Positions 470 through 45,699 of a DNA stretch of 46,367 nt are shown here, one piece after another. The position numbers and the translations under genes are program-made. Every line of letters begins with the position of its first letter. Positions within the stretch are counted from its first letter, which is position 1. Under the pieces are notes generated by a model. That model made no database searches. It was not told where the DNA came from and worked only from the letters and a program-made list of their open reading frames with translations. The DNA comes from Coleofasciculus chthonoplastes F2-STO-03 (lineage in GTDB: Bacteria; Cyanobacteriota; Cyanobacteriia; Cyanobacteriales; Coleofasciculaceae): contig JAVJWO010000175.1 in NCBI GenBank assembly GCA_040222015.1, positions 1-46,367 of the forward strand, read 5' to 3'.

Positions 470-1993
470 ATGATTGTGTCCGCCTCTGGCTTCGATCGCG
501 TTAAACAAGCCGTTAAAGATAAAGTCTTTTTTGGCAATGAACCCACACCGGAGTTGATTGCCATCCTCATCGTCTACTTTGTCCAGGGTATCCTGGGGCT
601 AGCCCGTTTAGCGATTAGCTTCTTCCTCAAAGACGAACTCGGTTTAAGTCCCGCCCAAGTCGCAGCCCTAATCGGGATTGCGGCGTTACCTTGGGTAATT
701 AAACCCCTATTTGGCTTTCTTTCCGACGGACTTCCCTTGTTTGGCTATCGTCGCCGCCCCTATCTAGTCTTGTCTGGATTGATGGGAACAGCGGCGTGGT
801 TAAGTTTGGCAACGGTAGTCCATACAGCTTGGGCTGCAACCCTTGCCATTCTCCTCAGTTCCCTCTCCGTCGCCATTAGTGATGTCATCGTAGACTCACT
901 GGTGGTGGAACGGGCAAGGCGGGAATCATTAAGCGATTCCGGTTCTCTGCAATCCCTGACGTGGGGAACTTCTGCATTAGGAGGATTGATTACGGCGTAT
1001 CTGAGTGGTTGGCTACTGGAGGCGTTTAACACCCAAACCGTTTTTGGCATTACCGCCACCTTTCCCCTACTTGTCTCTGGCGTGGCGTGGTTAATTGCCG
1101 AAGAATCCGTTAGTTCTGGGTTAAATACCGCCACGGTTACCCACCAAATTAAGCAATTGCGCCATGCGGTGACTCAAAAAGCCATCTGGCTACCCACAGC
1201 CTTTATCTTTATCTGGCAAGCCTCACCCACCGCAGATTCAGCCTTTTTCTTCTTCTCCACCAATGAACTCGGATTTGAGCCGGAATTTTTGGGGCGGGTG
1301 CGTTTAGTCACCAGTTTGGCGTCTCTGGTGGGGGTTTGGGTATTTCAACGGTTTTTAAAGGGTATCCCTTTCCGCACGATTATGGGATGGACAACTGTCC
1401 TGTCGGCTGTTTTGGGGATGACGACTCTCATCCTCGTCACCCATGCGAATCGGGCATTAGGTATTGATGATCACTGGTTTAGTTTAGGCGACAGTTTGAT
1501 TCTGACGGTGATTGGACAGATTACATTTATGCCCGTACTTGTGCTTTCAGCCAGACTCTGCCCATCGGGAGTAGAAGCGACTTTATTTGCCCTGCTGATG
1601 TCGATATGGAATTTATCCGGATTGTTATCTCATGAATTGGGGGCGTTATTAACCCACTGGCTAGGGGTGACAGAACATAACTTTGATCGCCTGTGGTTAT
1701 TACTGACAATTACCAACCTTTCTAGCTTATTACCCCTGCCTTTCTTAGGCTGGTTACCTGCGGCTGATCCGCAAACTGAAATTAAAGGCACAACGGAGTC
1801 TAAATCACTACCGCCAGCAGAAATATTTGAACATCATACGTCGGGTTCTCTATCTGAACAGCCATTCCTCCCTGATGTTGTACCCGAGTTTATCCGGGTT
1901 GGTAGTGAGGACTTTAGTCCTCTTGTCAAAGGCGCTAAAGCGCCTGCTACAAACCGGGTTGGTAGTGAGGACTTTAGTCCTCTGGATCAATAG
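470..1993 (+). CDS. Folate/biopterin (FBT/BT1) family MFS transporter
   Basis: Polytopic membrane protein with YFVQG and PWVIKPLFGFLSDGLPLFGYRRRPY, characteristic of cyanobacterial FBT transporters; C-terminus extended by REP repeats. Confidence 0.9.
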   Translation: MIVSASGFDRVKQAVKDKVFFGNEPTPELIAILIVYFVQGILGLARLAISFFLKDELGLSPAQVAALIGIAALPWVIKPLFGFLSDGLPLFGYRRRPYLVLSGLMGTAAWLSLATVVHTAWAATLAILLSSLSVAISDVIVDSLVVERARRESLSDSGSLQSLTWGTSALGGLITAYLSGWLLEAFNTQTVFGITATFPLLVSGVAWLIAEESVSSGLNTATVTHQIKQLRHAVTQKAIWLPTAFIFIWQASPTADSAFFFFSTNELGFEPEFLGRVRLVTSLASLVGVWVFQRFLKGIPFRTIMGWTTVLSAVLGMTTLILVTHANRALGIDDHWFSLGDSLILTVIGQITFMPVLVLSARLCPSGVEATLFALLMSIWNLSGLLSHELGALLTHWLGVTEHNFDRLWLLLTITNLSSLLPLPFLGWLPAADPQTEIKGTTESKSLPPAEIFEHHTSGSLSEQPFLPDVVPEFIRVGSEDFSPLVKGAKAPATNRVGSEDFSPLDQ

Positions 1994-2015
1994 CGCTAAA
2001 GCGCTTACTACAAAC
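1894..2015. repeat. Tandem pair of 60-bp REP-like units inside the 3' end of the FBT gene
   Basis: CCGGGTTGGTAGTGAGGACTTTAGTCCTCT at 1894 and 1954, translated as RVGSEDFSPL twice; the stop codon lies in the second unit. Confidence 0.9.
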
Positions 2016-2041
2016 ACGATTCAATAACGAGGGAATACAAG

Positions 2042-3523
2042 ATGATTGCAACTGAACAATTTTTAGACTCAAAATCTGCCCGTTCTTATGATCAGGAAGG
2101 ATGGAAACGGGGGTATCAATCTCAACCGAATGAATACGATTACTGGATTGAGGACATTGAAGGGGAAATTCCACCAGCGCTGAATGGCACGTTGTTTCGC
2201 AATGGTCCAGGTTTACTCGATGTCCATGGTCAACCTCTGCATCACCCCTTTGATGGGGATGGTATGATCTGTGCGATCGCCTTTGATCAAGGTCGTGCTT
2301 ATTTCCGCAATCGCTTTGTCCGTACTGAAGGCTTTCTCAAAGAACAAGAAGCCGGAAAAATGCTGTATCGCGGTGTTTTTGGTACGCAAAAGCCCGGAGG
2401 GTGGCTAGCGAATGCCTTTGATATTGATATCAAAAATATTGCTAACACAAATGTGATTTACTGGGGAGGTAAACTATTAGCTCTTTGGGAAGCGGCGGAA
2501 CCTTATCGGTTAGACCCCAAAACTTTAGACACTCTAGGGAAAGAAACTCTAGATGGGATTTTGGCTGAAGGTGAGGCATTTGGCGCCCATCCTTGGATTG
2601 ACCCAAGCTGCAACCAAGATGGGGGTGCGCCTTGTTTGGTTAATTTTGCGATTAAACCGGGTTTTTCCACCAAAATCACGATTTATGAATTAGATGAAGC
2701 TGGGAAATTGAAACGGCGTAAAAGTCACACGGTTCCGGGTTTTGCCTTTATCCATGACTTTGTGATTACGCCCAATTACTGCATCTTTTTCCAAAATCCT
2801 GTCACCTATAATCCCGTTCCCTTCCTGTTGGGATTAAAAGGGGCGGGTCAATGTGTAGAATTGAAAGCCAACGCACCGACTCGGATTTTAGTAATTCCGC
2901 GTCATGGTAATAAACCGATGCAAGTGCTGGAAGCTGACGCTGGGTTTATTTTTCACCATGCAAATGCGTTTGAGCAAGGGGAGCAAATTTGTGTGGATTC
3001 AATTTGCTATGAATCATTAACTCAAGTGGACTCAGAGATAGATTACCGGGACGTAGATTTTGATGCGCTTCCACCCGGACGACTGTTTCGGTTTACACTG
3101 AATTTAGCGGATTCTACGGTACAACGACAGCAACTATTCGCGCGTTCCTGTGAGTTTCCCTATGTTCATCCCAACCATGTTGGACGCCCTTACCGTTATG
3201 TATACATGGGAGTGACTCATAATCCCACCGGAAATGCTCCACTTCAAGCCATTGCTAAATTAGATTTAACCACAGGAGAGGAACAAGTTTGGAGTGCAGC
3301 CCCCCATGGCTTTGTCAGTGAACCGATTTTTGTTCCCCATCCTGAGGCGAAGCGAGAAGATGAGGGTTGGGTGTTGATGTTGGTGTATGATTCCAGTCAC
3401 CATCGCTCTGATGTGGTGATTTTAGATGGTCGAGATTTGAGCCACGGCGCGATCGCACGACTACATCTGTCGCACCATATTCCTTACGGATTGCACGGAA
3501 GCTGGACGCCAACCGTCTTTTAA
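2042..3523 (+). CDS. Carotenoid cleavage oxygenase (RPE65 family, apocarotenoid oxygenase-like)
   Basis: GTLFRNGPG, HPFDGDGM, KNIANT, EFP and IPYGLHGSW motifs; four candidate Fe-ligand His (AHP, IHD, FHH, LHG) present. Confidence 0.92.
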   Translation: MIATEQFLDSKSARSYDQEGWKRGYQSQPNEYDYWIEDIEGEIPPALNGTLFRNGPGLLDVHGQPLHHPFDGDGMICAIAFDQGRAYFRNRFVRTEGFLKEQEAGKMLYRGVFGTQKPGGWLANAFDIDIKNIANTNVIYWGGKLLALWEAAEPYRLDPKTLDTLGKETLDGILAEGEAFGAHPWIDPSCNQDGGAPCLVNFAIKPGFSTKITIYELDEAGKLKRRKSHTVPGFAFIHDFVITPNYCIFFQNPVTYNPVPFLLGLKGAGQCVELKANAPTRILVIPRHGNKPMQVLEADAGFIFHHANAFEQGEQICVDSICYESLTQVDSEIDYRDVDFDALPPGRLFRFTLNLADSTVQRQQLFARSCEFPYVHPNHVGRPYRYVYMGVTHNPTGNAPLQAIAKLDLTTGEEQVWSAAPHGFVSEPIFVPHPEAKREDEGWVLMLVYDSSHHRSDVVILDGRDLSHGAIARLHLSHHIPYGLHGSWTPTVF

Positions 3524-3566
3524 TGCAGGCAGATTTTTTGAATTCGTTTATTTAATATAGAAGATA

Positions 3567-4564
3567 ATGATCACAACAGAAAAAGAATCCGAACTATCTT
3601 TTGATCGCGAGGGATGGAAAGGGTGGTATGAATCCCAGCCAAATGAATATGATTACTTGATTGAGAATATTGAAGGGGAAGTTCCGCCAGAACTGAAGGG
3701 CACATTATTTCGCAACGGTCCAGGTTTATTCGATATTAATGGTCAGCGACTGCATCACCCCTTTGATGGGGATGGTATGGTATGTGCGATCGCCTTTGAC
3801 CAAGGTCGTGTCCATTTCCGCAATCGCTTTGTCCGTACTGAAGGCTACCTCAAAGAGAAAAAAGCGGGAAAAATTCTTTATCGCGGCGTTTTTGGAACGC
3901 AAAAGCCTGGGGGTTTGTGGGCAAATATTTTTGATATTAAACTCAAAAATATTGCTAACACCCATGTGGTTTACTGGGGGGGTAAACTGTTAGCCATGTG
4001 GGACGCTGCTGAACATTATCAGTTAGACCCAAAAACATTAGAAACTCTAGGGAAAGACGATCCTGATGGTATTTGGGCAAAGGGGCATTTCAGTAAAACA
4101 CACTCTCGGATTGACCCAAGCTGTGATCAAGATGGCGGTGTCCCCTGTTTGGTGAGTTTTACGATTAAACTGGGTCTTCTTAATTCCAAAATCACCATTC
4201 ATGAACAAGCACCAGACGGGAAATTGCGGCGTAGTTACTCTCACACTGTCCCCGGTTTTGCTGCGATGCACGACTTGGTGATTACGCCCAACTACTGTAT
4301 CTTTTTCCAAAATCCTGTGACATTTAATCCCATTCCCTTCATCCTAGGATTAAAATCAGCGAACCCATTTTTATTCCCCATCCTGACGCGAAGCGAGAAG
4401 ATGAGGGTTGGGTGTTGACGTTGGTGTATGATTCGAGTCATCATCGCTCTGATGTGGTGATTTTGGATAGTCGAGATTTGAGAGTTGGCGCGATCGCCCG
4501 ACTACATCTCAAGCACCATATTCCTTACGGATTGCATGGAAGCTGGACTTCGACAGTCTTTTAA
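3567..4564 (+). pseudogene. Tandem paralog of the carotenoid oxygenase with a ~475-bp internal deletion and frameshift
   Basis: The N-terminal ~260 aa are colinear with 2042-3523. At 4355/4356 the sequence jumps to the equivalent of position 3315. The C-terminal part (EPIFIPHPDAKREDEGW...HIPYGLHGSWTSTVF*) continues in another frame to TAA 4562-4564. Confidence 0.88.
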
Positions 4565-4591
4565 TTTTATTTATCTGTCATTTGTCATTTG

Positions 4592-4657
4592 GTCGGGGCG
4601 GGTTTTGCAGCCAAGCTAGGGATAACAATCAATATTAGTCCCTAAACCCGCCCCTAC
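4592..4657. repeat. REP-like inverted pair GTCGGGGCGGGTTT...AAACCCGCCCCTAC
   Basis: Inverted repeats; the same family recurs at 13215-13332. Confidence 0.8.
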
Positions 4658-4691
4658 ACACAGACGCTTCTGTCATCACTCTAGAACAAGA

Positions 4692-4795
4692 CTTCCCCAT
4701 CTTCCCCATCTTCCCCATCTTCCCCATCTCCCTCATCTTCCCCAGCTCCCTCATCTTCCCCAGCTCCCTCTGCTTCCCCTGCTTCCCCTGCTTCA
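4692..4795. repeat. 9-bp short tandem repeat array (CTTCCCCAT / CTCCCTCAT / CTTCCCCTG variants)
   Basis: About 11 units; the same motif occurs at 39398-39446. Confidence 0.85.
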
Positions 4796-5080
4796 TCGTA
4801 TCTACGAAGCTGCTCAAGTATTTTTGCCGCGCTGCACTAGGGTTCAATCGCGTAAAATTATGAATATCAATAGCTAATCGTATTGTCCAAATCTTAACCA
4901 AACCCAAAACAGGTTAAAACAAAATCTGGACGATACCGATGCTTAGATCAGTCGATGTGCATTTAAATTGGATATTTCTGTTCCCTATTCCCCGTTCCCT
5001 GTTCCCATTGAGGAATTTAGACATCCTGATCTAAATGCTGGATAGCTAATCGAGGCAAAATAATTTTGGTGGAGAAGGGT

Positions 5081-6064
5081 ATGAAATTTAGCATCGTCAT
5101 CACGACTCATAATCGTCTCACCTTACTCAAGCGAGCAATTGACAGTGCGTTAGCTCAAACGATACCGTGCGAAGTAATTGTGGTGGATGATGGCTCGTCT
5201 GATGATACGGATATGTATGTCCAGGGGCGACGGAAAGAACTCTTGGACATGGGTGACACCCGTTTAATTTATTATCGAAATTCGACGAATTTGGGTCACT
5301 CAGGAACGGTCAATCAGGGTGTAGCATTGGCGACAGGAGAATGGGTAAAACTGGTAGATGATGACGACTACCTTGCCCCGAATTGTATTGAAGAAATGGT
5401 TAAGGCGATCGCAGGGCGTCCAGATGCTGTGATTTGCTCCTGTCGAGCCATTCAGATCAATGAGAATGAGAAAGAAATCAGCAGAAGTCGGCACGTTGGC
5501 AAGGGAACACTTGTATATGTTCCCCAAGCCGAGATTCATTACGCCATGCTGTTGGAACTCTTGCCATTTGGCACGCCTGTACAAGTAGCCTTTTCCCGTT
5601 CAGCTTTCCTTAAGTCAGGCGGATGGGATACTAGATTCGATACGAATTATGATGATATTGATTCCTGGATTAAAATTGCCCAGTTTGGCGATGCTGTTTT
5701 GATCAATAAATGTCTGGCTTACCGGACTATTTGGCAAGGTTCATTTCATAGCAAGTTTACTTTTGATAAACGCCTGGAAATTAATCTAATTATTAAAGAA
5801 AATATTTATTCGTGTATTAGCCCAAAATATCGTCATACTTTACCAGAACTATCAGAAATTAAGTCGTCGATAAAAATCCATTGGGGATTTGCTGCCCTCA
5901 AAAAAAGAAAATTTGTCAGCGCGGTAAGAATTTGGTTAAAAACGGATTTATCTATAGCGTCTGCAAGGTTATTTTTAAAACGAATCATTGCCAGAAATTG
6001 TTTAGATGAATTACTACAAGAGTCTCAGAGAACGCCCATTTTATTAGTGCGTGAACATAACTGA
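5081..6064 (+). CDS. Glycosyltransferase family 2
   Basis: FSIVITTHNR, VIVVDDGSSD and DDDD motifs; ATG at 5081 follows GGAG. Confidence 0.88.
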   Translation: MKFSIVITTHNRLTLLKRAIDSALAQTIPCEVIVVDDGSSDDTDMYVQGRRKELLDMGDTRLIYYRNSTNLGHSGTVNQGVALATGEWVKLVDDDDYLAPNCIEEMVKAIAGRPDAVICSCRAIQINENEKEISRSRHVGKGTLVYVPQAEIHYAMLLELLPFGTPVQVAFSRSAFLKSGGWDTRFDTNYDDIDSWIKIAQFGDAVLINKCLAYRTIWQGSFHSKFTFDKRLEINLIIKENIYSCISPKYRHTLPELSEIKSSIKIHWGFAALKKRKFVSAVRIWLKTDLSIASARLFLKRIIARNCLDELLQESQRTPILLVREHN

Positions 6065-6156
6065 GTTATTTAAACCTAAAGGTAACTCCAAGAAGCAAGT
6101 GCGACCGTATCTGCCCTAACCCAGACAAAATCCCTAACAATAGGCAAGGGTTTTGA

Positions 6157-7206
<1,050 letters not shown>

Positions 7207-7336
7207 TCATTGGTCATTAGTCATTTGTCCGTTGTCCTTTGTTATTTTTTGGCAAGACAATTGGCAAATGACATCAGTCTTGATCACCCAGTCCGCGTAG
7301 GCGGACTTTGTTTGTGTAGCCGTGATTTCAATCGCC
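7207..7336. repeat. STRR-type heptamers (TCATTGG/TCATTAG/TCATTTG) followed by a small dispersed repeat (AGTCCGCGTAGGCGGACT...TTTCAATCGCC)
   Basis: Heptamer periodicity directly after the ilvC stop; palindrome AGTCCGC-GTAG-GCGGACT near 7290. Confidence 0.7.
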
Positions 7337-7399
7337 TTGGCAAAAGGGGGCTTATTCAGCAAACCCCAATTATCATGAACGGGTAAATGCGTAGCGCTA

Positions 7400-8371
7400 A
7401 TGACAACAAATAAACTCGAATTAACCCAATCAAAAATAGACTCACCGCAAAAATGGACGGCATTAATCTTATTATCAGTCGCCTTAATTGCTTTGTCGCT
7501 AACCGCCATCTTTATCAAAATATCGGTTCAGGAAATTAGCGCCAATGCCACGGTATTCAATCGCCTCTGGATAGCAACAATTATCTTTGGGTTGTGGAAT
7601 GGCTTTAAGCAACTCCAAAATAAGGAGTTGGATGAGCCATCTGCCACCAATTCACGCTATCAGATAAGTGAAATCATGCTTCTGTTGGGTGTCGCTATTG
7701 TTCATGTCATGGGTCGATTCTTGTGGACGTGGTCACTGACTCAAACCAATGCGGCAAATGCGACGGTTCTGTCTAATATGCCTCCCCTATTCACCGCGTT
7801 AGGCGGATGGTTGTTTTTCGGTCAGCGTTTTGACCGGAGATTTGTGTTTGGGCTAGGAATTGCTCTGGCTGGAGCGATTGGATTGGGATTAGAGGATTTC
7901 TTTCTATCAGATAATAGCTTGTTCAGTGAAACCGCGTTTATTGGTGATGCAGCGGCGTTATTATCTGCCATGTTCTATGCTGCCAGTTTTTTAATCCTAG
8001 AACAACTTCGCAGTCGATTAGCGGTTCAAAATATCCTCCTGTGGCGCTGCTTGTTGGGTACGTTGTTTATGATACCCGTTGTGCTGATGGTGGAAGACCA
8101 AGTATTTCCAATATCTTGGCAAGGGTGGCTAGCGGTGTTCGGTTTGGCGGCTATCTGTGAAGGATTAGGACATGGGTTAATTGTCTATAGTCTTAAGTAT
8201 TTCTCTTCCGCATTTGTCACCGTGGTTCTGTTGCTTGAACCCGTGATGACTGCCGTTTTTGCCTGGATACTTTTCTCAGAAGGTTTAAGTCTTCTAAACC
8301 TATTAGCTTTTGCCGTGATTCTAGAGGGTATCTATTTAGCCAAAACCGGCAAGGGAGCTGATAAGGCGTGA
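7400..8371 (+). CDS. EamA/DMT family transporter
   Basis: About 10 TM segments in two EamA-like halves; paralog of 20538-21544. Confidence 0.88.
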   Translation: MTTNKLELTQSKIDSPQKWTALILLSVALIALSLTAIFIKISVQEISANATVFNRLWIATIIFGLWNGFKQLQNKELDEPSATNSRYQISEIMLLLGVAIVHVMGRFLWTWSLTQTNAANATVLSNMPPLFTALGGWLFFGQRFDRRFVFGLGIALAGAIGLGLEDFFLSDNSLFSETAFIGDAAALLSAMFYAASFLILEQLRSRLAVQNILLWRCLLGTLFMIPVVLMVEDQVFPISWQGWLAVFGLAAICEGLGHGLIVYSLKYFSSAFVTVVLLLEPVMTAVFAWILFSEGLSLLNLLAFAVILEGIYLAKTGKGADKA

Positions 8372-8439
8372 AACCGGCTATCCGGTAACTTAGTATTAAT
8401 TCTTCTTAGGCGACATGATAATAATACGCCTTCTTGTAC

Positions 8440-8802
8440 TCATATCGGCAAGCGCCTCACCCGAAACGCTTCATCACTCACAGAAATAATTGCTCCCGCA
8501 GCTAAATCCTCCTCAAAGTGATTCAAGGCTTCCATTAAACGATCGTTAATCATCTCATAACGTTCATTACCCAGTCTAAATAAAATTACGCTGGGTAATG
8601 TTTCCCCACTCACCGCCAACAAATAACCAAAATCTAAATCAACAGTTAAAAGAATTCGCCCTTCCTCACGAGCTTTTACAAGAATTTCATCATCGGCTAA
8701 TCGTTCCAAACCCTCTTCAACTAAATGTATGGCATCATAACCAGCAGCTTTTAACCAATTAACAGTACGTGGCGAGATACCCATATCCGCTAAAAATCTC
8801 AT
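8440..8802 (-). CDS. DUF5615 PIN-like toxin (VapC45-like)
   Basis: MRFLADMGIS, D-D-E and LLTVDLDFG acidic PIN motifs; overlaps the upstream DUF433 gene by 4 bp. Confidence 0.85.
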   Translation of the reverse strand: MRFLADMGISPRTVNWLKAAGYDAIHLVEEGLERLADDEILVKAREEGRILLTVDLDFGYLLAVSGETLPSVILFRLGNERYEMINDRLMEALNHFEEDLAAGAIISVSDEAFRVRRLPI

Positions 8803-9038
8803 CCGACTTTCTCACCCACGATAGGGAAAACCTGCTCTCGTGCCAGCCATGCAGCATACAGCAATGACTGTTGAATATCTTCAGGTTCCAAATAGGGATA
8901 ATCTTCGATAATTTCCTCCACTGTTTTACCATTTGCCACTAAATTTAAAACTAATGAAACCGGAACTCGCATTCCCCGAATACATGCAACTCCTGCCATG
9001 ATACGTGGATTAAACGTAATTCTATCTAAATTCAACAT
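8799..9038 (-). CDS. DUF433 antitoxin (VapB45-like)
   Basis: RITFNPRIMAGVACIRGMRVPVS...EIIEDYPYLEPEDIQQSLLYAA. Confidence 0.9.
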   Translation of the reverse strand: MLNLDRITFNPRIMAGVACIRGMRVPVSLVLNLVANGKTVEEIIEDYPYLEPEDIQQSLLYAAWLAREQVFPIVGEKVG

Positions 9039-9076
9039 AAATTAGTCCTCCAAAACGACTAGATTAGTTTGAACCG

Positions 9077-9619
9077 CTATGCTGAAAGAGTCTTGATTTG
9101 AAATCCCTCAAAGACAACTTGAAACCCTTCCCGTTCCGGTGACGCACACATTAAACCCACTTGCACTGTTTCGGCTTCGGTCAAATAAGCCAATCTCATC
9201 ATTGTAAAGTGTTCGCCGTCAAGGGAATATTTTACTTCTACTGCACCTCGACTACATTGTAGTTCTAACCATAAGGATGGAGGATTTTCCGGAATACCCA
9301 CCACAGACCAATCCGAATACTCTCGCGTGACCACCGTGCTGGCATATTGTACACCGTCAACAAACTCAATTCCACACTTTAACCACGTCTGATCATTTTC
9401 GCGGATCATTAACCCTGCTTGGTCATAAAGTTCCTGATACTGTCCAGTGATTTTCACGACAGCCATAAAATCACCGGTTATCTCCTGATAATAAAAATGT
9501 CCTGTATCACGGATAAATCCGTAATGCGTCTTGCGCCAGAAGTCGGTTTTTAGTCCTGACGTGACTGTAATTACTTGCTCTTGCTCATTCCAGACAGGCG
9601 GTTCATTATACCATTTCAT
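9077..9619 (-). CDS. DUF1349 domain protein (concanavalin-like fold)
   Basis: KTDFWRKTHYGF, LYDQAGLM, WLKCGIEF, GLMCASPE. Confidence 0.85.
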   Translation of the reverse strand: MKWYNEPPVWNEQEQVITVTSGLKTDFWRKTHYGFIRDTGHFYYQEITGDFMAVVKITGQYQELYDQAGLMIRENDQTWLKCGIEFVDGVQYASTVVTREYSDWSVVGIPENPPSLWLELQCSRGAVEVKYSLDGEHFTMMRLAYLTEAETVQVGLMCASPEREGFQVVFEGFQIKTLSA

Positions 9620-42645: not shown

Positions 42646-43422
42646 TTACCGTTTAACTGCTTTACGGCGACGGCTAATCAAACCTAGCGCACCTAAACCG
42701 AGCAAGGCTCCCACTGTACCGGGTTCGGGGATTGACTCATGTTGAGCTTTTGCTTTAACCACCCAATCTTGGAAGTCATAGTAGAATTCACCATTAGGAA
42801 GAGGGAAGCGAGTATCTTCCATACCGATGAAGTAGTATCCTGGATCAGATACCTCTATGATTGGATTATTTTGGGCTTGATCGGTCAAGCTGGGGAATTT
42901 GAAACTATCTAGCTGAGCCACCCCAAAGGTACGGAACATTGGTGTTCCATTGCCGCTAAAGCCACGCTCCCAAACTCCGAACTGGTATTCAACATCTTTT
43001 TCAAAGGTATAATCAACCATACAGGGTGATTTGATGGTGACGTCACAAGTCCCTTGCCAATCATTGATGAAGGCACTGTTAGGGATATCAAAAGAATTGC
43101 CATTCGGCTTAGCGGCGGTTGGGTTAGCGCCTTCCATAAACAGTGCCGTAAACTGCCCATTGGACATAAAGCCAAAGTCTGAGTAGAATAAACCTCTCGA
43201 ACCTAGCCCATCTGGAGCCATTACACTGAATTTGTAGGTGTAGCCATCACCAAGGAATACATTGGTTTGATGGGGGATGGTTGGAGCGGTTCCCGTCACA
43301 GGGCTATCTTCAACGATATCGATGCCGAGGAAACTAGCAGCTTGTGCTGGAGCGCCAAGTGTAACGAGGGCAGTAGCTGTAGCAGCAGCGACACTTAGGG
43401 TAGAACTGAATAGTAATTTCAT
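42646..43422 (-). CDS. PEP-CTERM surface protein (paralog 1)
   Basis: Signal peptide (PAQAA); C-terminal IPEP-TM-RRRK; GMED...DFQDWVV motif. Confidence 0.9.
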   Translation of the reverse strand: MKLLFSSTLSVAAATATALVTLGAPAQAASFLGIDIVEDSPVTGTAPTIPHQTNVFLGDGYTYKFSVMAPDGLGSRGLFYSDFGFMSNGQFTALFMEGANPTAAKPNGNSFDIPNSAFINDWQGTCDVTIKSPCMVDYTFEKDVEYQFGVWERGFSGNGTPMFRTFGVAQLDSFKFPSLTDQAQNNPIIEVSDPGYYFIGMEDTRFPLPNGEFYYDFQDWVVKAKAQHESIPEPGTVGALLGLGALGLISRRRKAVKR

Positions 43423-43852
43423 CGTTTATCCTTGCTATTAAGACTTTAGTTCTAGATTAGAGCAGATATTAATTATCTAAACTGTGAATAATTATTGCTG
43501 TGTGGGAAGAGTTAAGCTTGAGTCGATGAGCCGAAGCTCTTGGCAACTCCCTTATTTTTCTCCCCTAGTTCCATATTAGACCTTAATAAACTCTCGTTTA
43601 GAGAATCGTCCATCAAAAGGGCGTTTTTCATCAACTCTTCATCAATTCCCCCATTTATATGAAGTTTTCATGAAGAAAGACACCCTCTCTAGTCGGAATT
43701 CCCTCGGAGCTGAAAATATTGATCAATAACCCATCCTCATGACTTGGAAAACAGGATTTGGCTGAGATTGGTTCTCCCATTCAGTGGCTCATCGGCTATT
43801 TCGGCAGGAACAATGTATCCTAAACGACAAAAATGGGTCAGAGAACGAAGAC

Positions 43853-43888
43853 AACAAAAAGCAGTTGGTATTTTTCTCCAACCACTTT
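43853..43888 (-). terminator. Intrinsic terminator of PEP-CTERM gene 2, displaced from its stop by the mini-element
   Basis: Minus strand AGTGGTTGG...CCAACTGCT-TTTTGTT; homologous to 42566-42602. Confidence 0.65.
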
Positions 43889-44031
43889 AAGCCTTGCGAT
43901 TACGTGACGTCCTCCTACACCGACCCTACGGGTACGGTTGTAGGCTTCCTTTGGGGTTCCGTTTCAGAACGACGCTTCCGGCGTTTTATAGTGGGGAATA
44001 CGCAAGAGCCCACTTCTTGCTTATCGCCAGA
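43884..44031 (-). ncRNA. Candidate standalone TnpB omega/right-end guide RNA (scaffold plus ~20-nt flank-derived guide)
   Basis: About 128 nt of multi-hairpin sequence between the predicted TSS and the IS right end, followed by flank and a terminator. Confidence 0.5.
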
Positions 44032-44135
44032 GAATTAATATTAGCTTACAACAAGCAAGTTGTCAATAATAAACTGGCGATTCATCCCACGCTCAATCGA
44101 AGATTAGAGCGTGGGGAACCTATCGCCGGATAAGC
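43904..44135 (-). mobile_element. Non-autonomous miniature IS200/IS605 element (PATE-like) retaining an omega-RNA-like right end
   Basis: Left-end hairpin CCCACGCTC...GAGCGTGGG (44086-44115); right-end hairpin 43914-43944 in a GAAGCC...GTCAC context; no tnpA/tnpB; absent from the paralogous 3' UTR. Confidence 0.75.
44038..44066 (-). promoter_or_regulatory. Sigma70-type promoter TTGACA-N17-TAATAT inside the mini-element
   Basis: -35 at 44066-44061, -10 at 44043-44038, 17-bp spacer. Confidence 0.7.
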
Positions 44136-44168
44136 TAACTTCTAAGTCCAAGAGTGACCCCTGGCTAT

Positions 44169-44942
44169 TTATTTTACCGCTTTGCGGCGACGACTGATGA
44201 TACCTAGGGCGCTTACACCTAACAACGCTCCAACTGTACCAGGTTCAGGTACTGACGCATGTGTAACCTTAACCACCCAGTCTTGGTAGTCATAGTAGTA
44301 GTTGGTAGAATCTTTCTTGAACATTCCATCTTCCATACCAAGAAAGTAAGCACCTTCTTCTGCTACAGTCAAGAATTTGTCAGGGTTATTGGCAACATAC
44401 TCTGGAGTCAGAGGATTGGGATATGACTGATCTGTTGCTGTATTGAACGTGTAACTATCTTTCTGAGCAACCCCAAAGCCAGAGAAGTTACTGGCTCCAC
44501 CACCAAAGCCACGGTCTAATAATCCTAGCTGATATGTCACACCTTCTTCAAAGGTATATTTAACAGTACATTCCTCACCGATACTGATACCACAGGTTCC
44601 TAACCAATCATTGTCGTTACCGGAGCCAGGGTTGTATGGACCTAAGTTTTCTGTAAACAGCGAAGTGAATACTTCCCCAGACATAAAACCGAAGTTTGAG
44701 TAAGTCGCACCTCTAGAACCTAGCCCTGTTGGAACCACAACGCTAAATTCGTAAGTTTTACCATTCCCCTCAAATGTTCCTGTAGCGTGGGGAATAGGCA
44801 TTGGACCGATACCCTTCATAAACGGGCTATTATCAATGACATCAACACCTAGAGTAATAGCGGCTGCAGGAGAAGCAAAACTTGCTAGTGTGGTAGCTGT
44901 GGCGGCAACAATACTTAATGTCGAAATAATTGGTAGTTTCAT
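44169..44942 (-). CDS. PEP-CTERM surface protein (paralog 2)
   Basis: Signal peptide; VPEP-TM-RRRK; shares IPH, GLGSRG, NDW.GTC...C, GMED and DYQDWVVK with paralog 1. Confidence 0.9.
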   Translation of the reverse strand: MKLPIISTLSIVAATATTLASFASPAAAITLGVDVIDNSPFMKGIGPMPIPHATGTFEGNGKTYEFSVVVPTGLGSRGATYSNFGFMSGEVFTSLFTENLGPYNPGSGNDNDWLGTCGISIGEECTVKYTFEEGVTYQLGLLDRGFGGGASNFSGFGVAQKDSYTFNTATDQSYPNPLTPEYVANNPDKFLTVAEEGAYFLGMEDGMFKKDSTNYYYDYQDWVVKVTHASVPEPGTVGALLGVSALGIISRRRKAVK

Positions 44943-45513
44943 AATGGTAATTCCTTCCCTTTAGCGGGTTATATTTGACCAGAGAAAAATTATGCTTAAG
45001 TTAATAAGTTTTCACTTCTGAAAGCCGATTTGCTTTTTCTCTCATAACTCTATATTAGAACACAACAAACTTTTGTCTAGAGATATCCCCCTTAAATGGG
45101 CATTATTTATCAACTCTTTATCAATTTCCTCATTATATATAAAGTTTTTGTGAAGCCAGACATCAATGAGTATAAATTCACAACGAGTCATAACTGTCTA
45201 TCGCTGTTGCCTGTCAAATTAGATACATTCCAAGAAAAAAGGATGATGGACGACATGTTCACCTTGAGCAGTTTGCTTTGGTAACAAACTGATACAACTT
45301 CCTCAATCCAAGAGCAGAAACTTTTCCGAAGGGTTCTCCATCTTGGACTTCCACAGGATTCGTCATTTGGAGGTATAGGCAATTTGTCAAATAATTGTTA
45401 CAATTTTTAATATAGCTTGGGAACGGTTGACCCGTTCACAGAACATAGCCCTTGCCAAATGCAGGCTTGTGTCATCTGAATGTCCATTTTTTCTAGCATT
45501 CAAGGAGATAACC

Positions 45514-45699
45514 ATGTCCCAACCCATGCAACTTTCCCTAGAACAACAATTTAATATCCGCTCGTTTGAAACCCAGGTGCAGAAAATGAGCCGTGAGCAA
45601 GCTCAAGACTTTCTGGTTAAGCTCTACGAGCAAATGATCATGCGTGAAAATATGTACAAGGAGTTTCTCAAACATGAATGGGGTCTAGAACCCAGTTAA
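45514..45699 (+). CDS. nblA: Phycobilisome degradation protein NblA
   Basis: LSLEQQFNIRSFETQVQKMSREQAQDFLVKLYEQM; AGGAG RBS before ATG 45514. Confidence 0.95.
   Translation: MSQPMQLSLEQQFNIRSFETQVQKMSREQAQDFLVKLYEQMIMRENMYKEFLKHEWGLEPS

Follow-up and report, generated by a model that had tools for sequence, protein, structure and literature searches.

The window analysed here, a 46,367-nt stretch from the assembly of Coleofasciculus chthonoplastes F2-STO-03 (7.7 Mb in 219 contigs), carries on its minus strand a 231-bp gene-less element that is almost certainly a PATE of the IS605 family (43904–44134). The element lies 30 bp downstream of the stop codon of a PEP-CTERM protein gene, on the same strand and between two PEP-CTERM genes (Table 1). 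It contains no minus-strand open reading frame (ORF) of 60 amino acids or more, and two short plus-strand frames overlap it. The left-end hairpin with its outer stem has a predicted DNA folding energy of −18.1 kcal/mol (z = −4.75), matched by none of 200 shuffled sequences. In Rfam, the element RNA has no family at gathering score or at a meaningful E-value; across the window, a tRNA elsewhere is the sole gathering-score match, and ten E-value matches fall far below gathering. When the sequence was re-read, the features listed in the original prediction, among them an IS605-type left-end hairpin at 44115–44086, were all present at their minus-strand positions. The surrounding DNA (42646–44942) comprises tandem related PEP-CTERM genes with related terminators; at this locus G001 and G003 have one such gene directly before polA, and G008 has two. 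A short ORF at 45427–45699 resembles what we take to be NblA, the phycobilisome degradation adaptor.

Table 1. Features of the element and its insertion locus (window positions).
Feature	Position	Strand	Description
Gene-less PATE, 231 bp	43904..44134	−	BLAST boundaries coincide across all copies; flanks differ
TTAG target motif (predicted TAM)	44135..44138	−	Host-derived, outside the element; precedes 10/10 complete copies and stays in four sister empty sites
Left-end hairpin	44076..44127	−	Core 44115–44086 plus outer stem GGCGAT/ATCGCC
Promoter-like site, sigma-70 type	44038..44066	−	TTGACA-17-TAATAT; sits where the tnpB promoter does; no ribosome-binding site
Mini-specific 5′ leader hairpin	44015..44031	−	Mostly TCTTGC-N5-GCAAGA; the window copy has one broken pair
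omegaRNA (reRNA) scaffold, 111 nt	43904..44014	−	Stem 1, UAUAAAA strand, variable stem 3, right-end hairpin, pseudoknot
Scaffold stem 1	44014–44009 with 43995–43990	−	
Pseudoknot 5′ strand, GCGT	44000..44003	−	Predicted pairing with ACGT 43910–43907; position as in the ISDra2 pseudoknot
Right end	43904..43948	−	GAAG tetramer 43948–43945, hairpin 43944–43914, terminal TCAC
Predicted guide	43888..43903	−	The 16 nt of host flank next to the element; length assumed as in ISDra2
Intrinsic-terminator-like hairpin	43853..43888	−	Assigned to the host PEP-CTERM gene; lies next to the element by chance, outside it
Host PEP-CTERM protein gene, 257 aa	44169..44942	−	TIGR02595 above cut-off

A BLAST search of the region against its own genome returned 52 matches. 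Ten copies, this one included, are complete at both ends and occupy nine or ten different sites: four measure 229–231 bp (C175, C125, C97 and C195), five 301–314 bp (C148, C174, C62, C18 and C214) and one 111 bp (C100). Every complete copy is preceded by TTAG and ends in TCAC, and the left flanks are all distinct, with the right flanks of C97 and C100 identical up to the contig ends. Several further copies are truncated or cut by contig ends; C176 and C108 overlap and represent a single locus. Copies with identical ends and differing flanks bear out the proposal that the element is mobile and meets a new flank at each insertion, and the ten complete copies, together with the pair changes described below, mark it as more than a single decayed copy lacking covariation. 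The same downstream flank, up to the contig ends, follows three right ends (C97, C100 and C62:16323), reflecting either a duplication that carried flanking DNA or an assembly repeat.

Precise empty sites were recovered for four of the five sister copies searched. The C148 site is empty in all five genomes searched and the C195 site in three of five, in each case with the flanks joined exactly after TTAG, and the C18 site is joined in the same way in G001. The C174 site is precisely empty in G007 and also appears as a 313-nt skip in metatranscriptome run X4; for C125, a flank-to-flank match is absent in five genomes. Because the sister sites join exactly after TTAG, the element runs from 44134 to 43904 and inserts without target duplication. 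The right edge first proposed (43904) is thus retained, and the left edge moves from 44135 to 44134, with TTAG at 44138–44135. An exact empty site of the window copy was not found: the element is absent from G001, G003 and G008, and their intergenic sequence differs. In runs X3 and X4, a joint over the window locus skips 290 nt, the sequence in between not being read. One sister insertion, C148:4959–5271 (L015), interrupts a 290-aa gene, presumably encoding a two-domain 6-pyruvoyl-tetrahydropterin synthase, which is 92–100% conserved in five relatives (see also L039); farther along, this gene is also missing 162 bp that the five relatives have.

Related miniature elements (minis) are present in G001, G003, G005 and G006 at 70–98% identity, as well as in metagenome records, and the C195 insertion is common to G001. 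Further diverged tnpB-less scaffolds occur at C33:37894, C178:73034 and C163:8823 (60–77 bits with a covariance model); C178:73034 and C163 have approximately 145 nt in common within different flanks, which suggests a second small mobile family. Another scaffold (C178:58148–58284, L087, L088, L098), which has a G-U pseudoknot pair and a 24-nt insert and lacks a left end, occupies one orthologous site in four genomes, each time beside the same flank, and is possibly a fixed, perhaps immobilised omegaRNA relic.

The original prediction held that a cognate protein cannot be identified from the window; none lies within it, but the same genome names two candidates. The full-length element C131:21786–20268 has the same two ends and TTAG, and the window element is 89% identical to it over 66 nt at the left end and 82% over 101 nt at the right end. 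Its 469–470-aa ORF matches the NCBIfam family NF040570 (guided_TnpB; 240.8 bits against a cut-off of 100), its best PDB matches are the TnpB chains 8BF8/8H1J (E 7e-23), and the RuvC residues D233, E318 and D416 are intact. A second full-length element with both ends, C198, encodes a TnpB 79% identical to that of C131, with D-E-D intact and a short in-frame repeat insertion. The tnpB of C49 is broken, and all other TnpB homologues have at most 52% identity. Ends in common with full-length tnpB elements, a length of 231 bp and the lack of genes agree with the description as a miniature IS605 element without tnp genes, and the same ends point to C131 and C198 as the putative partner TnpB. Across the genus, 19 elements of 1.1–1.7 kb were found that have both ends and the C-terminal motif of tnpB; all follow TTAG, which the search pattern itself included, with one mismatch allowed overall. 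Genome-wide, the TnpB zinc-finger family PF07282 has 75 matches and Y1 transposase has 17, and several TnpB families have a similar style of right-end hairpin and a TCAC end.

The promoter-like site agrees with the consensus at 10 of 12 positions. Such a match alone is weak, as six promoter-like sites occur in 2 kb against 3.0 ± 1.7 in shuffled sequences; it gains weight because diverged minis from four genomes keep the 17-nt spacing even as the spacer itself drifts. The −10 box is carried by nine of the ten complete copies, and the −35 box is intact in six and weakened or lost in four. Full-length elements mostly carry TATAAT with a weak −35 box (CTGATT or CTGAAT), followed by a ribosome-binding site and a TTG start. 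The minis have TTGACA, CTGACA or ATGACA at −35, a 17-nt spacing and no ribosome-binding site. The long copies contain 82 extra bases, including decayed tnpB codons for YKAAKAG, and the G001 copy L023 retains a longer piece of tnpB, with a promoter region that by eye resembles that of the full-length element L070. Together, these elements form a deletion series from about 1.5 kb through 301–336 bp to 231 bp. Because the longer copies keep tnpB scraps, stepwise deletion brought the promoter onto the scaffold, and the retained pieces, with the comparison of the boxes between full-length elements and minis, suggest that it is most probably the former tnpB promoter with an improved −35 box. The same observations uphold the earlier suggestion that loss of tnpB placed a promoter on the scaffold.

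From the −10 spacing, a transcript start is predicted near 44031, giving an RNA of 128 nt to the TCAC at 43904. The short-form RNA would begin with the leader hairpin, which is common to the minis and was not seen in full-length elements; it is predicted in the folds of C125, C195 and C174, and C156 keeps the stem with a different loop. The promoter spacer and left end contain imperfect palindromes that have become more perfect, or have had their arms swapped, in ways that differ from copy to copy (window 44066–44038, C62, C18, C105, C174, C65, C84 and C130). These changes look like template switching in single-stranded DNA and weaken the −35 box in some copies.

The scaffold retains the architecture of a TnpB omegaRNA over its full length, as had been proposed. 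With a covariance model built from 18 tnpB-linked right ends only, the window copy (44018–43904) scores 84.2 bits (E 7e-19) and covers model positions 1–112, which shows that it is not truncated; the best minis score 114–118 bits, the highest being C195 (118). The structure was assessed in an alignment of 34 distinct sequences (20 tnpB-linked and 14 minis), from which 8 of 42 had been left out for length (six long-insert scaffolds and two others), and was drawn by analogy with ISDra2 (PMC10097598). In this alignment 94.7% of cells are paired and double changes occur in 14 of 33 pairs, a level reached by none of 500 shuffles, and slid controls are 35–45% paired; these statistics are not probabilities, because the structure was derived from the same, related sequences. 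The fold of a 183-nt stretch has z = −2.47, equalled by 3 of 200 shuffles. In minis of four species-level genomes, pairing is kept in stem 1, in stem 3 and in the pseudoknot, all of which lie outside the right-end DNA hairpin that TnpA requires. One pseudoknot pair (44001 with 43909) is A:U in all 20 tnpB-linked rows; in the 14 minis it is G:C in ten, A:U in three and broken in one. The change to G:C is confined to minis and is one inherited event, not ten. It probably arose after tnpB was lost, because two of the A:U minis have the leader and tnpB scrap typical of this lineage.

The scaffold of the window copy itself has drifted, as judged from its model score and predicted pairing. The outer pseudoknot pair and one leader pair are broken, and a variant in the stem-1 loop, present also in the intact element C198, creates a competing hairpin. 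The predicted probability of stem 1 is 0.2, compared with 0.99 in C195 and 1.0 in C131, and the two folds of the window copy tie at −45.0 kcal/mol in a prediction that includes neither pseudoknots nor protein.

The intrinsic terminator included in the original prediction as a cassette part is present (43888–43853) but belongs to the host gene. The terminator scanner missed this hairpin, which has a loop of 9 nt, and a looser rule found it. The same hairpin stands behind the orthologous PEP-CTERM gene where the element is absent, in G001, G003 and contigs of X3 and X4, and a paralogous one stands behind the neighbouring PEP-CTERM gene (42604–42566). Among 13 element flanks, one has a U-tailed hairpin within 100 nt, with C174 borderline. 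A built-in terminator was rejected on these grounds: the element landed between the PEP-CTERM gene and its terminator, and the host mRNA would consequently also carry the scaffold and guide.

Parts of the stretch are present in twenty metatranscriptome runs, in every case as contigs, and six of the runs were compared with the copies. In run X11, the contigs that are almost identical to the mini scaffold reach depths of 1,053–9,552, and a contig of the promoter and left end has a depth of 12. Cover of the long form in X11 breaks off at an adapter, 17 nt before the predicted start is reached, and there is none from that adapter to the −10 box. Much of the signal runs into the 82-bp insert and therefore derives from long copies, not demonstrably from the window copy. 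Contig ends at 44034 in X11 were considered as a start site and rejected, as 44034 is also the branch point of the short and long forms. In X17 (from the same study as X11) and X15, one contig each stops inside the 82-bp insert, a weak hint at depths of 2.7 (X15) and 6.7 (X17). In X3 and X4, each left-end contig has a depth of a few hundred, near that of the scaffold, and in X1 a single flat contig of depth 7 joins the host gene to the element, placing the same insertion in another sample. As judged from contigs, the contrast of scaffold over left end is thus strong in one run and weak in two, the other three being too shallow, and a sharp 3′ end 16–20 nt into the flank was not seen in the runs compared. 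Because contigs give no strand, start, end or level, and uncovered parts alone prove nothing, these data are a hint that the family, mainly its long copies, is transcribed from the internal promoter.

The 21 right ends examined have 19 distinct flanks, and for none of these was a second TTAG-preceded genomic site found beyond a 12-nt seed; four seed-only matches have 7–9 mismatches in 20. The 20-mer guide of the window copy has no exact match in the viral_contigs or genome_contigs collections, from which this genome or very near ones may be missing. The element has no match in plasmid records, and in phage records only a chance-level match of 29 nt within the promoter region, common to two records of a single phage. 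The guide matches on record thus comprise each copy's own empty site only, as far as these searches reach. An own empty site as the sole target fits the published donor-joint model, in which the joint left by excision is cut by TnpB and the element is regained through repair (PMC10055086), and does not fit a guide library.

We therefore favour an explanation in which the PATE, a deletion derivative of a cyanobacterial tnpB-only element that has kept both ends, a promoter-like site and a whole scaffold, would produce a standalone omegaRNA that loads the TnpB of a sister element and is aimed at the element's own empty site; this is probably correct, and that the element works as a standalone omegaRNA at all is itself rather likely. 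The observations underlying it are the coinciding boundaries, the TTAG motif, the precise insertions, the stepwise deletion, the intact partner ORF and the scaffold architecture. The RNA would be transcribed from about 44031, or within the host PEP-CTERM mRNA reading through to the same terminator, and would be bound by the TnpB of C131 or C198. TTAG would act as the TAM; after excision by TnpA, TnpB would cut TTAG plus flank, and the cut would be repaired from a sister chromosome still carrying the element. As the guide is the local flank at each insertion, each copy would protect itself and nothing else. Such homing is established for other IS605 elements (PMC10055086, PMC10691335).

The state of the window copy, with its competing hairpin and broken outer pseudoknot pair, also fits a different history, in which the minis are TnpA-only parasites or decaying relics whose ends serve transposition, whose promoter is a leftover and whose RNA, at least that of the window copy, no longer guides TnpB. 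The many truncated copies and the impaired −35 box in four of the ten complete ones agree with this, as do copies that lack the promoter or stem 1: the 111-bp C100 and the promoter-less, independent deletion derivatives G001:C32 (L026, 232 bp), G008:C34 (L042, 145 bp), G006:C384 (L066, 173 bp) and G000:C27:17820 (57 bp). We consider this history unlikely, though with an appreciable chance of being right. Pairing of stem 1, stem 3 and the pseudoknot persists in minis of four genomes with a mini-specific compensatory change, deletions end just short of stem 1, and it is the promoter-bearing lineage that multiplied, with the −10 box nearly always kept.

The minis could instead act as decoys or cheaters, their abundant scaffold soaking up scarce TnpB from two genes and lowering the protection of full-length elements, whether or not they guide. 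At least ten complete minis against two intact tnpB genes, a −35 box better than that of the full-length elements, and the very deep scaffold contigs of one run would all be expected of a decoy. We regard it as improbable as the principal explanation; it is compatible with self-directed guiding, and the two are inseparable by sequence alone.

A dispersed guide library was the function suggested in the original prediction; if domesticated, it would serve defence or, through a nuclease-dead TnpB, regulation. The differing flanks, the adjacent guides used by TldR repressors (PMC13565253) and the persistence of some copies, such as the C195 insertion shared with G001, are in its favour, but it is very improbable and largely refuted, because none of the 19 flanks has a second target in the genome and the three close TnpB homologues (two catalytically intact, one broken) include no nuclease-dead member. 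The guide 20-mer of the window copy is likewise absent from viral_contigs and genome_contigs, the element has no meaningful match in phage or plasmid records, the window insertion is absent at the matching locus of three relatives in which the junction was read, and one copy breaks a conserved host gene. Self-protection by homing is thus likelier than a guide library.

Gene-less, omegaRNA-bearing PATEs acting in trans are already in print. In Geobacillus stearothermophilus, PATEs often encode omegaRNAs on which TnpB must act in trans (Meers et al., PMC10055086), and IS200/IS605 elements insert without target duplication (same source). The present element resembles those PATEs in having no protein gene, the ends of tnpB elements of its own genome, TAM-directed insertion and no duplication; it differs in its TTAG/TCAC motifs, its cyanobacterial host, a traceable deletion series, a conserved promoter-like site and the mini leader hairpin, and no cognate tnpA was identified here among the 10 of 17 Y1 matches inspected. 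Standalone omegaRNAs of OMEGA systems have been reported to work in trans, with a biological role called unknown in 2023, as summarised in PMC10691335; like the present minis, they are mobilised without effector or transposase and have effector loci in the same genome, but trans activity is reported there and is here predicted from sequence. In Halobacterium salinarum, the expressed RNA VNG_R0052 likewise derives from a PATE of an IS1341-type tnpB element (PMC4615843); it is 99 nt long, and its transcript includes a fused portion of the left end, whereas in the present element the promoter lies downstream of the left end and the full scaffold is retained. A PATE with IStron ends appears in a figure legend of 10.1101/2023.11.20.567912.

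The order of parts matches that of the ISDra2 omegaRNA, which has a 116-nt scaffold and a 16-nt guide (here the scaffold is 111 nt), a stem-1 loop pseudoknotted with the last bases before the guide, a purine-rich strand following stem 1 and a right-end hairpin (PMC10097598). The ISDra2 omegaRNA lies inside the 3′ end of tnpB and its TAM is TTGAT, and the match here is by position and covariation as opposed to a solved structure. This cyanobacterial TTAG/TCAC family is not described in the literature searched (subscription papers lay outside the search); as the element falls in a known category, general knowledge is unchanged. Its value is as a natural test set for the role of standalone omegaRNAs: one genome offers an intact TnpB partner, ten minis of three sizes, with and without a −35 box, and verified empty sites. 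It also supplies a compact TnpB, whose TAM is predicted to be TTAG, and a guide scaffold trimmed by nature to approximately 128 nt.

The left end of the window copy has GTTC where full-length elements carry AAGC, just before the hairpin core. By the IS608 pairing rule as we understand it, AAGC of the full-length elements specifies TTAG; the right end (GAAG/TCAC) presumably follows this rule, as would the C117 tnpA element with AAAA and TTAT, which has the nearest hairpin type among the Y1 loci inspected. The G000 minis carry GTTC or TCAT yet are located at TTAG sites, and those of G005 and G006 retain AAGC. None of the ten inspected Y1 matches, out of 17 in the genome, is a tnpA with matching ends; with this and a left end that lacks the expected tetramer, present-day excision is uncertain. 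AGGT was considered as a wobble version of the guide and rejected, as it would leave the strict TTAG preference unexplained.

The GTTC/TCAT type of left end occurs in all nine genus genomes, mostly as relics, and in none of the loci read does it adjoin a tnpB gene directly. None of the 17 loci read is a full-length element with a GATAGGTTCCC-type left end; most are left-end-only relics at orthologous sites. The CTAG and TTAA variants are not independent, because they mostly lie at orthologous sites. A bolder scenario, to which we give little credence, is that after tnpB loss the lineage became a dedicated guide gene, with a stronger promoter, a protective 5′ hairpin and a re-paired pseudoknot, whose RNA would flood the cell and commandeer the TnpB of the two remaining elements, while spread to TTAG continued even after loss of the left-end DNA guide that TnpA presumably needs. 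If so, that spread would imply a route or a target choice outside the IS608 model. Strong palindromic repeats lie approximately 5–70 nt downstream of the insertion sites of C215, C174, C166, C62, C176, C18 and C195, and the tnpB of C198 carries a repeat of this kind as an in-frame insertion.
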